64,000 nucleotides of DNA from Inhella sp. (GTDB lineage: Bacteria; Pseudomonadota; Gammaproteobacteria; Burkholderiales; Burkholderiaceae_C): assembly GCF_041912635.1 (NCBI RefSeq), contig NZ_JAYRMO010000005.1, positions 33,472 through 97,471 of the forward strand, read 5' to 3'. Numbering within the stretch: the first letter of the stretch is position 1; every line of letters starts with the position of its first letter. Positions 27,001-30,000 of the stretch are shown here, piece by piece. The position numbers are program-made.

Positions 27001-30000
27001 ACCTGGCCGCCGAGGGCCGCACCATGATCGTGGTGACGCACGAGATGGGCTTTGCCCGTGAGGTCAGCAACCACACCCTGTTCCTGCACCAGGGCAAGGT
27101 GATCGAGGAAGGTCACCCCAAGGATATCCTCGTTAACCCGAAGAGCGAGCGCCTGAAGGCCTTCCTCAGCGGCGGCCTGAAGTAGGCGCTACTTGCCGCC
27201 CAGCACGCGCGCCGGCAGGAAGAGCAGGGCGCGCAGGGCGGCGAACAGGGCTTCCACGCTCAGGCCGATCAGCCGGAAGGGCAGGCTGATCAGCCAGAGG
27301 ATGGGCCAGAGCACCAGCGCCAGCAGGGCCAGCGGCCAGCAGAGCACGAAGAGCAGCAGCCAGAGCAGGAACTTGAGCATGGCCGCAGCCTACGCCGGGG
27401 TGGCGGGTGTGCGGGAGGTCATGCAGGGCTGAGTTGGGCCTGCAGGGCGCGCCGAGCGGCCTGGGCCCACGGGCTGGGCTGCTGCGGCGGCATGGGCAGC
27501 CGGCCGGCCGCAGGCGCCGGCAGCGCCCACTCGGCGCAGGCATGCACGAGCTTGATCACATGCTCGTCGTCCTGGGCGCCGGCGGCTTCGAAGTAGAGCG
27601 GCCAATCGGTCGACTCAGCAGACTCGGATTCGGGCGCGGCCGGCTCACCCGTCCAGCGGCTGGCCAGCAGCGCGGCGGCGGCATCGATGGCAAAGCGCCG
27701 CACCACCTCCTTCGGGCGGGTCACATAGGGCAGCAGAACGCGCAGGGCGCGGCTGCCTGTCACCCCATGCAGCAGGGTGAAGTTCCCACTGGCTGCATAG
27801 GCGCGGGCCAGCCACTCGGCCAGTTGGCGCAGGCCATCGGCCGGGGCCTGCAGCTGCAGGCGGGCGGCAACCTGGGCAAAGCCTGGTGTGGCGGCCCAGG
27901 CCTGCATGCGCTCGTCGATCAGCCCGGCGGGCGGCGCGGCGGGGGCGGGCAGGGCGCGGATGGCAGCGAGCCAATCGTCCAGCGCCAGATCGGGCGTTGG
28001 CAGCGGCTGGCGCCACAAGGGCGCGTGCTGGCTGGCCCACAGGCCCAGGGCGAGTGCGAGCTCGCCGCTGTGGCCGCTCTGCCAGGCGTGCGCGGTGCGG
28101 ATCAGCAGATGAAAGGCCATCGAGGCGCCGCCGTCCAGCAGTTCGGGCAGCGTGGCCTGCAGCAGGGTCTCGGCGGGCTGCCGGTCCAGTTCGGCATCGA
28201 AATGCGCCACCAGCAGGGGCAGGGCCTCGGCGCGGCCGCGCAGCGCGCGCCAATCGGGCAGCAGGGCCGGCGCGGGCCAGGGCAGCACCAGGGGTTCGAG
28301 TTCACGAACCTGGGCTTCGCTGAAGGCCTGCAGGCGTTCGCTCGAAGCCCCCAAGGCCCACAGCGCATGCTGGGCCATCGGCAGGTGCGAGACCAGGCGA
28401 CCCTGGTAGAGCGGATGCCAGGCGGCGCGGCCGGCGCTGAGCAGGGCATGCAGGGGGTGCTGGGCGTTGAGCGACATGGTGCTTGCAGGTGGAGGGTGAG
28501 GTCACGCACTCTGCAAGCTCAAGTGAGCTTCAAGTCAAGTGCAAAATGCCAGCGCAGCCCCACAAGGAGCGCGACATGCAAGACGGTGAGGGCGCCAGCT
28601 GGCTGGCGATTGGGGAAATGGCGCAGCGTGCCGGCCTGGCGGCCAGTGCCCTGCGCTACTACGAACAGCAAGGCCTGATTGCCGGCGGGCGCAGTGCCGG
28701 CGGGCGGCGCCAGTACCCGCGCCATGTGCTACGGCGCCTGGCCTTCATCCGTGCCGCGCAACTGATGGGGCTGACGCTGCCTGAGATCCGAGCCGCCCTG
28801 GCCAGCCTGCCCGATGAACGCACGCCCACCAAGGCCGACTGGGAAAAGCTTTCGCGCCAATGGCTGCCGCTCATCGAGGCGCGCATGGCCGAGCTGCAGC
28901 GCCTGCACGACAAGCTGACCGGCTGCATCGGCTGCGGCTGCCTGTCACTCAAGGCCTGCAAGCTCTATAACCCGGACGACCAGGCGGCGGCGAAGGGGGC
29001 GGGGGCGCGCTACTTGGCAGGGGATTTGCCGGGGCTGTGAACGGAAGCGAATGTGGCCGAGTGCTTCGCTGTGGGTATCGCTGTTGGCATCAAACTGCCG
29101 GACATGGGGCCGATGCGCGCTGCATTCGGCCGCAGGCGCGCTGAACCGCAGCCCTGCTGCAGGTGAAATCGATGGCTCCGCAGGCACCAGGCGTCAAGGT
29201 ACGGATCCGATTTCTGGGCCATGGCGGCCGTCCGGTGACCGAGCGGCAATGGCTGAAAGCCCTGCTGCCGGCCGCCTGGGACGAGCCGGCCCGCATGCAG
29301 ATCCGAGCCTTGGCCGCGCAGCACCTGGCCCTGTTCAACGCCGATCGGGTGTTTGTGTACCCGATCGCGCTCGATCTGATCCGGACTCGGTTGCTGGACC
29401 TGGGCCTGGGCGGGCGCTTCCAACACTTCGCCTGGGAGCTGCCGGTCCAGGCGATCCCGCCACTGTGCGAGCACTGTCTGGCCTGCTGGCTCGGCAAAGC
29501 TCCGGAGCCGCCCGCCTGCTTCAGCCAGGGGTTGGCCCGGGTGTTTCGCTCCCCGCATTGCGGCAGCCTGATGCTGGACGACCCGCAGGCCGGCAAGGCG
29601 GGCCTGCGGCAGTTCATCAGCGTGCCGGAGTCTGCGCAGCGTTTCGGGCTGACCCCGGGAGCTGGGATGGGGCCCTAGTTCAAAGTCAGCGCGGGGGCGT
29701 AGCTGGCACCCTTGAGCATGGCCTCGCAGGCGAGCCGGGCGGTGCTGCCGATGCCGTAGCCGACCAGCAGCTGGGTGCCGGCATAGGCGCTCAGGTCGGT
29801 GTCCACCGGCACGACCGGGGCGCTCATGGTGGGGGACAGCGGCCCCAGGTAGGCGGCCGGCATGGCGGCGCAGCCGCTGAACAGGCTCCATTGCCCGCCC
29901 GACCAGGCCCAGATGTCGCTGCCCATTGCCGGGGGCAGCAGGGCGGCGACAAAGAAGCCACCCGTCAGGCCCACCACGGCCGGCGGCAGCGTGGCGGAAA

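Follow-up and report, generated by a model that had tools for sequence, protein, structure and literature searches.

A SoxR-linked gene of the DUF4243/questin oxidase family as a putative redox-stress module in Burkholderiales

Introduction

What does a gene of the DUF4243/questin oxidase family do next to soxR? The question is raised by a 64,000-nucleotide stretch of the genome of Inhella sp. (RefSeq assembly GCF_041912635.1, contig NZ_JAYRMO010000005.1, positions 33,472–97,471 of the forward strand), which was analysed as a whole and is referred to here as the window. A 352-residue member of the family, related to BTG13 and called the dioxygenase below, is encoded at 27419–28477 on the minus strand (PF14027, 58.5 bits). 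Back-to-back with it, across an intergenic gap of 98 bp, lies soxR, the gene of a [2Fe-2S] MerR-family redox sensor, at 28576–29040 on the plus strand (154 residues plus stop; TIGR01950). An initial annotation had described soxR as divergent from a DUF4243 gene, and both open reading frames (ORFs) were recovered at their places with matches to PF14027 and TIGR01950. Our analysis led us to favour, on balance, a two-gene redox-stress module in which SoxR would induce a dioxygenase that cleaves reduced quinone-type redox cyclers.

The characterised members of the family are non-heme Fe(II) 4-His-1-carboxylysine dioxygenases (PMC11371914, PMC12173810). In the searchable literature, DUF4243 appears solely in fungal polyketide or bacterial C-nucleoside biosynthesis, with nothing on stress or regulation. 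Bacterial DUF4243 proteins are numerous (~1,000 clusters), and the only physiological roles known for them are in two pathways of antibiotic biosynthesis. A pairing of SoxR with DUF4243 or questin oxidase is likewise absent from the searchable literature, in agreement with the initial annotation, which knew of no report of the family as a SoxR target; an entry as a "hypothetical protein" in an old sox-box table is possible. Neither the regulatory scheme nor the enzyme family is new; what appears to be new is their pairing and the stress-response context for the family.

Results

SoxR and the promoter of the dioxygenase gene

By the measure of its sequence, the MerR-family ORF on the plus strand is a bona fide SoxR. 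It matches the SoxR equivalog model TIGR01950 at 193.4 bits (cut-off 116.9) over 139 of the 142 model positions, and the related metal-sensor models score at most 64 bits; PF00376, PF13411, and PF09278 (N-terminal MerR helix-turn-helix, HTH) match as well. The C-terminal cluster motif CX2CXCX5C is present as CIGCGCLSLKAC, and the protein aligns with E. coli SoxR without gaps, with 45% identity over 141 residues. The mechanical start of the ORF is TTG 28483. The most plausible start is ATG 28576, because a Shine-Dalgarno sequence, AAGGAG (28564–28569, plus strand), is read 6 nt on its 5' side and the resulting protein, at 154 residues, is as long as E. coli SoxR. Between the third and fourth cluster cysteines, the window protein and 40 orthologues have L-K-A, in contrast to R-S-D in E. 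coli. This three-residue loop tunes the redox compounds sensed by SoxR, and non-enteric types respond poorly to viologens, so that paraquat may be a poor inducer here.

The element facing the dioxygenase gene has the architecture of a SoxR target promoter. The initial annotation had read TTGACT-19 bp-CAGAGT, and we read the same at 28538–28508 on the minus strand: a −35 hexamer TTGACT (28533–28538), a 19-nt spacer tgaagctcacttgagcttg (28532–28514), and a −10 hexamer CAGAGT (28508–28513), with the dioxygenase ATG 30 nt beyond the −10. The soxS promoter of E. coli K-12 (NC_000913.3) reads TTTACC-tcaagttaacttgaggaat-TATACT, also with a 19-bp spacer, and both hexamers and the box core stand in exactly equal register in the two promoters. 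The predicted SoxR box, TTGAAGCTCACTTGAGCTT (28515–28533, minus strand), lies inside the spacer and overlaps the last base of the −35 hexamer. It is identical to the E. coli box at 13 of 18 positions (19 of 31 for the whole element). The consensus of the family agrees with the E. coli box at 14 of 18 positions. In relation to the canonical sox box CCTCAAGTTAACTTGAGG, the register and the core (AAG..ACTTGA) are kept.

When a degenerate pattern for the sox box, built on the orthologous sites described below, was scanned over the 64-kb window, it gave a single match, at 28515–28533 on the minus strand, where 0.01 matches would be expected by chance. A generic sigma-70 scan of 27000–29300 found no promoter; it was blind to a MerR-type promoter because it was restricted to spacers of 16–18 nt. 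The reverse strand of the element carries no comparable −35 and −10 hexamers. Direct control of the dioxygenase gene by SoxR seems very probable; a sox box has been described as a strong predictor of such control (bioRxiv 10.1101/2021.12.01.470848).

The initial annotation had also noted a SoxR-like dyad in the spacer. The dyad, AAGCTCA-N2-TGAGCTT, is real, but it is centred 3 bp off the symmetry centre common to E. coli soxS and the orthologous sites. We rejected it as the operator centre and preferred the register shared by E. coli and 76 orthologues. About the canonical centre, the window box is palindromic at 4 of 9 positions, compared with 7 of 9 for the family consensus and 9 of 9 for E. 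coli.

Conservation of the gene pair

A profile built from 31 homologues of the dioxygenase was searched against a one-genome-per-species collection and yielded 80 loci, all from Burkholderiales: Inhella (94% identity), Roseateles, Pelomonas, Aquincola, Paucibacter, Rhizobacter, Rhodoferax, and Rubrivivax-type metagenome-assembled genomes (MAGs). Cultured strains among the carriers are Inhella proteolytica 1Y17 (L001, the one with 94% identity), Roseateles saccharophilus DSM 654 (L014), and Pelomonas aquatica KCTC 42961 (L004). The linkage of soxR and DUF4243, for which the initial annotation had proposed a survey, was found in 76 of these 80 species-level loci, with soxR directly upstream and divergent (tblastn). 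All 76 carry the promoter element, which is absent in the four loci without soxR. One of the four lies at a contig edge and is not assessable for soxR (L072), and another has no soxR in ~570 nt of upstream sequence (L054). In the remaining two, the upstream gene encodes a LytTR response regulator (L062) or a CoA-binding protein (L065).

The 76 orthologous promoters and that of the window, 77 sites in total, were aligned without any indel, and the spacer is 19 bp in all. The −35 hexamer begins with TTGAC throughout and ends in T at 66 sites and in A at 11; the −10 occurs as 24 different hexamers, all of which have A2 and T6. Almost no variation is seen in the box core T-C-A-A-G-T-T-N-A-C-T-T-S-A-A, whereas the flanking positions carry only 0.1–0.6 bits and are near random. 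At every site the hexamers are oriented towards the dioxygenase gene. The dioxygenase is as little as 37% identical in these loci, and SoxR as little as 55%; the divergences of the two proteins are correlated (Spearman 0.75). The invariance of the element amid near-random flanks across such diverged loci indicates that it has been held constant while its surroundings were randomised.

Two unusual loci fit a functional coupling of regulator and target. In L044 (3678–3824), SoxR is cut to its C-terminal 49 residues, without the HTH, and no other box is as degenerate, at five mismatches; the decay of the two appears to be coupled. A homologue fused to a VOC/glyoxalase-fold domain is also divergent from soxR, behind TTGAAT-19-CATTCT with the box TTAAGTTAACTTTAA.

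Some features vary within the clade. The VOC/glyoxalase-fold domain (PF00903) is fused to or follows several members (P0104/L081, 4001–5371; P0107; P0113; L062, 4753–5379). In L069 (3415–3849), the first cluster cysteine of SoxR is replaced by serine (SSIGCGCLSLSQC); the Rhodoferax MAG concerned also has a second, intact soxR–DUF4243 pair (L032), and another MAG has two pairs as well (L026 and L048). A perfect palindrome, ATGGCGCCAT, directly follows the −10 in 14 loci (26 when a one-base variant is allowed) and is possibly a second operator. No conserved downstream operon partner, such as a reductase or a pump, was found among the loci, and the downstream genes vary by lineage. About 30–35 Roseateles/Pelomonas loci (L003–L063) have genes for an XRE-HTH/cupin regulator and a GNAT acetyltransferase downstream on the same strand, at ~30 nt and ~480 nt on the 3' side of the DUF4243 stop.

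Clades without soxR

The idea that all bacterial DUF4243 genes are linked to soxR was rejected by two groups of homologues. The first is a sister clade, reached with a second profile that was built from the most divergent short-form representatives (set A2) and run on metagenome contigs. Of the 80 loci obtained, 62 were assessable, having at least 550 nt of upstream sequence, and none of these 62 showed soxR or a sox box. In 20 sister-clade loci (within L087–L166; for example, L163, 1982–2977, plus strand), the glutathione synthetase gene gshB (PF02955, PF02951) lies directly upstream on the same strand, which suggests a thiol- or redox-related role for that clade as well. The second group comprises homologues of 29–32% identity on 74 Rhizobium plasmids (for example, L084 and L085, on NZ_CP125639.1 and NZ_CP104039.1), where no soxR was found at the DUF4243 loci. 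There the gene stands in an operon for an NAD(P)/FAD oxidoreductase, DUF4243, an amidohydrolase, an 8-oxoguanine-deaminase-like protein, and another amidohydrolase, adjoined by a sugar ABC transporter. The operon has the look of a pathway that catabolises a heterocycle or a nucleoside-like compound.

An exhaustive profile search reached 3,267 cluster representatives (clusters at 50% identity) with a threshold of E ≤ 1e-3 and 988 with the stricter E ≤ 1e-30. In a neighbour-joining tree, the 76 SoxR-linked proteins and the four unlinked proteins of the genome scan group into a single clade that includes none of 79 sister proteins. Since the SoxR-linked proteins form one clade and the sister clade and the Rhizobium homologues are without soxR, the linkage is clade-specific and probably of single origin.

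The dioxygenase

The 352-residue protein scores 58.5 bits with PF14027 (Questin_oxidase/DUF4243), whose gathering cut-off is 27, over profile positions 4–340 of 340; no NCBIfam model matched it. The PF14027 assignment is precomputed for nearly all of its homologues. A single-sequence phmmer search against the PDB gave nothing relevant, and a search with the family profile found PaD (8z4q, E 4.7e-8), BTG13 (7y3w/x/y), and, marginally, AflY (8yxs). The AlphaFold2 model (pLDDT 94, pTM 0.93) is all-helical, and a Foldseek search of the PDB with it returned at E ≤ 0.001 only PaD, 8yxs, and BTG13, with TMq of 0.64–0.70 and identity of 16–18%.

The metal site of the family is retained. The iron ligands of PaD are H63, H166, H317, H394, and K397 (PMC11371914), and in BTG13 the ligands are four histidines and Lys377, which is carboxylated and stabilised by Thr299 (PMC12173810). 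In the profile alignment, H31, H123, H237, H306, and K309 of the window protein fall on the metal ligands and T240 falls on the threonine that stabilises the carboxylated lysine. These six residues are invariant in the 31 homologues, and in the divergent set A2 the five ligands do not vary either; the sister clade, of the same short form, has a conserved signature HLPM...HxxK. The protein is likely to be an active metal-dependent oxygenase, with iron and a carboxylated lysine predicted to occupy the site.

The surroundings of the metal site differ from those in the characterised enzymes. His53 of BTG13 serves in hydrogen bonding to the substrate and in proton-coupled electron transfer, and His58 hydrogen-bonds to the carboxylated lysine; the H58F replacement raises the activity of BTG13, and the loop varies with the substrate (PMC12173810). 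The residue aligned with His58, M34, is invariant. The lid motifs 1–3 of PaD (K56–F60, K246–A258, and T444–D448) appear to be absent, an approximate assignment taken from the profile alignment: PaD has a seven-residue insertion at motif 1 relative to the bacterial profile, the motif 2 region does not align, and the 43 residues that follow K309, compared with 76 after K397 in PaD, are too few for motif 3. As the protein is shorter and has no equivalents of His53 and His58, its substrate is not transferable by homology. Judged by the alignments, the catalytic core is intact and the substrate pocket is one of its own.

The initial annotation had noted that fungal questin oxidase opens anthraquinone rings. 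The substrates of the characterised members, however, are reduced forms, a hydroquinone or an anthrone supplied by a partner reductase, and not the quinone (PMC11371914, PMC12173810). BTG13, GedK, MdpL, and AflY cleave a C–C bond of anthrahydroquinones, and PaD cleaves a monocyclic hydroquinone.

Genomic surroundings

The soxR–dioxygenase pair is a free-standing two-gene unit, found in ~76 species of freshwater and sludge Burkholderiales. In the window, it is flanked by an amino-acid/cyanophycin-type uptake and peptidase cluster on one side and by unrelated genes on the other. The cluster (21735–27185, plus strand) consists of two peptidase-S51 (cyanophycinase-like) genes and genes for an SBP_bac_3 solute-binding protein, an AstE/AspA-family hydrolase, and an ABC ATPase. 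It is probably an operon for uptake and hydrolysis of dipeptides or amino acids, convergent with the dioxygenase gene.

Between the two lies a very hydrophobic ORF of 63 residues (MLKFLLWLLLFVLCWPLALL...; 27189–27380, minus strand), 38 nt on the 3' side of the dioxygenase stop. It is found with 95% amino-acid identity in two loci of the Inhella clade (L001 and L002) and is absent at all other loci. It may encode a small membrane protein co-transcribed with the dioxygenase gene, and its membership in the module is uncertain. A generic promoter and terminator scan found no terminator-like site within 27000–29300.

On the other side, a YjgF/RidA gene (L-PSP endoribonuclease family; 31245–31751, minus strand) lies 2.2 kb from soxR. 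Going by its title, a 2017 article by Kim et al. reportedly concerns a SoxR-regulated endoribonuclease in other non-enteric bacteria. The degenerate-pattern scan found no second sox box in the 64-kb window.

The window sequence is present in metagenomes from activated sludge and wastewater. A few exact 151-nt contigs from four sludge RNA libraries lie inside the dioxygenase gene, at a depth of ~2 and with DNA carry-over possible.

Discussion

In the mechanism that we propose, SoxR would bind the sox box between the −35 and −10 hexamers, and the 19-bp spacer would keep the promoter off. A redox-cycling compound (a quinone, a phenazine, or similar) would oxidise the [2Fe-2S] cluster, and oxidised SoxR would remodel the spacer and turn the dioxygenase gene on. 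Activation by spacer remodelling is established behaviour of MerR-family regulators and of SoxR. The dioxygenase, with its Fe(II) held by four histidines plus one carboxylated lysine, would then use O2 to cleave a C–C bond of a reduced, hydroquinone-type compound, and this cleavage would remove the cycler irreversibly. The reduced form would be made continuously by cytoplasmic flavoenzymes during redox cycling. Since the flavoenzymes would supply the reduced species, no dedicated reductase would be needed, which fits the lack of a conserved partner.

The steps of this scheme are not equally secure. That the dioxygenase detoxifies reduced quinone-type redox cyclers, and would thereby protect the cell, is close to an even call. 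The narrower idea that the enzyme is inducible and dedicated to destroying redox-cycling antibiotics, by opening the ring of their reduced form, is rather unlikely. In general outline, the proposed module agrees with what non-enteric SoxR regulons are known to contain, namely oxygenases, reductases, and pumps for redox-active aromatic compounds (PMC4146615; bioRxiv 10.1101/2021.12.01.470848; PMC4411124).

Several points weigh against the proposal. The window box is among the most degenerate, with three mismatches to the family consensus and only 4 of 9 positions palindromic, and a Shine-Dalgarno sequence is not obvious ahead of the dioxygenase ATG. The support from metatranscriptomes is a handful of single-read contigs, possibly DNA carry-over. 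The protein is ~100 residues shorter than the characterised enzymes (352 against 440–473) and only 16–18% identical to them, and in the profile alignment V29 and M34 stand in place of His53 and His58 of BTG13. One family member, OzmD, has a different chemistry (PMC12173810). In addition, no reductase partner is kept beside the dioxygenase gene.

Some of these points bear on the alternative that the gene is controlled by SoxR and its product carries out a chemistry other than ring cleavage of a hydroquinone, which we consider improbable. The enzyme might insert oxygen into a non-quinone or rearrange it, in the manner of OzmD, or oxidise another small molecule that builds up under redox stress, or the protein might have a non-catalytic role related to iron or O2. 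The low identity to the characterised enzymes, the missing equivalents of His53 and His58, and the precedent of OzmD (PMC12173810) all speak for such a deviation; the 20 gshB-linked loci of the sister clade hint at a general thiol or redox role, and the Rhizobium homologues stand among amidohydrolases and deaminases. However, the five metal ligands and the threonine that stabilises the carboxylated lysine are invariant, and VOC/glyoxalase-fold domains, which are typical of aromatic-ring chemistry, occur fused to or beside some of the SoxR-linked proteins.

Somewhat less probable still is the alternative that the enzyme, again under SoxR control, tailors or turns over a redox-active metabolite or pigment of the bacterium itself and not foreign toxins. 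A role of this kind has been proposed for the SoxR regulons of Pseudomonas and Streptomyces, and all characterised DUF4243 enzymes are biosynthetic (PMC12173810). The genomic context argues otherwise: no biosynthetic cluster flanks the pair, the flanks vary by lineage, and the pair is free-standing in ~76 species.

It is very improbable that the box serves soxR autoregulation only, with the dioxygenase gene expressed independently and the adjacency inherited as synteny, since, although all carriers belong to one clade in which shared ancestry could explain the adjacency and E. coli SoxR autoregulates from a shared divergent region, the TTGAC, A2/T6, and fixed 19-bp spacer are invariant on the dioxygenase strand of all 77 sites, the reverse strand has no comparable hexamers, the element has persisted while the flanking intergenic DNA was randomised, and loci that lost soxR also lost the element.

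The two-gene module favoured here shares much with the soxR–soxS system of E. coli: the genes are divergent, the box lies between −35 and −10 hexamers spaced by 19 bp in identical register, and the SoxR proteins are 45% identical, equal in length, and alike in their four cysteines. Unlike that system, the target is an enzyme and not the transcription factor SoxS, so that there is no second regulatory tier; the window box is also less symmetric (4/9 versus 9/9), and the cluster loop is LKA in place of RSD.

A small set of direct targets, often adjacent to soxR, which export, reduce, or oxygenate redox-active aromatic compounds, is a trait of non-enteric SoxR regulons that the pair has in common with them. 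Known targets include the monooxygenase PA2274, mexGHI-opmD, and PA3718 in P. aeruginosa; SCO1909, SCO2478, SCO4266, SCO7008, SCO1178, and SCO0320 in S. coelicolor; RND-9 in Burkholderia; and mfsA in S. maltophilia (PMC4146615; bioRxiv 10.1101/2021.12.01.470848; PMC4411124). The effector predicted here differs in being a ring-cleaving dioxygenase of the BTG13 family, which would degrade its substrate and not export or modify it. With the fungal DUF4243 dioxygenases, the protein shares the Pfam family, the all-helical fold (in the model), and the 4-His-1-Lys site with its threonine. The fungal genes belong to biosynthetic clusters with a dedicated reductase, whereas the bacterial gene stands alone and is predicted to be stress-regulated. 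Other bacterial DUF4243 genes, namely those of OzmD/MinD-type C-nucleoside biosynthesis, the Rhizobium operon, and the gshB-linked sister clade, belong to the same Pfam family, and the sister clade shares the short form; they differ in having no linkage to soxR or a sox box, and they stand in biosynthetic or catabolic settings or beside the gene for glutathione synthetase (PMC6908994).

The link to SoxR provides a concrete, testable hypothesis on the inducers and the substrate class for one large clade of bacterial DUF4243 proteins. It would add a degradative enzyme to the targets of SoxR, which so far are mostly pumps, reductases, and cofactor-free monooxygenases. If confirmed, the module would offer a compact ring-cleaving enzyme for quinone and hydroquinone pollutants, together with a natural pair of redox-inducible promoter and regulator from sludge organisms. 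If the narrower idea of a dedicated enzyme against redox-cycling antibiotics is true, it would mean that Burkholderiales of freshwater and activated sludge resist redox-active natural products and quinone pollutants by means of an enzyme, a new class of resistance mechanism within SoxR regulons, and the 4-His-carboxylysine dioxygenase family would gain its first physiological role outside biosynthesis.

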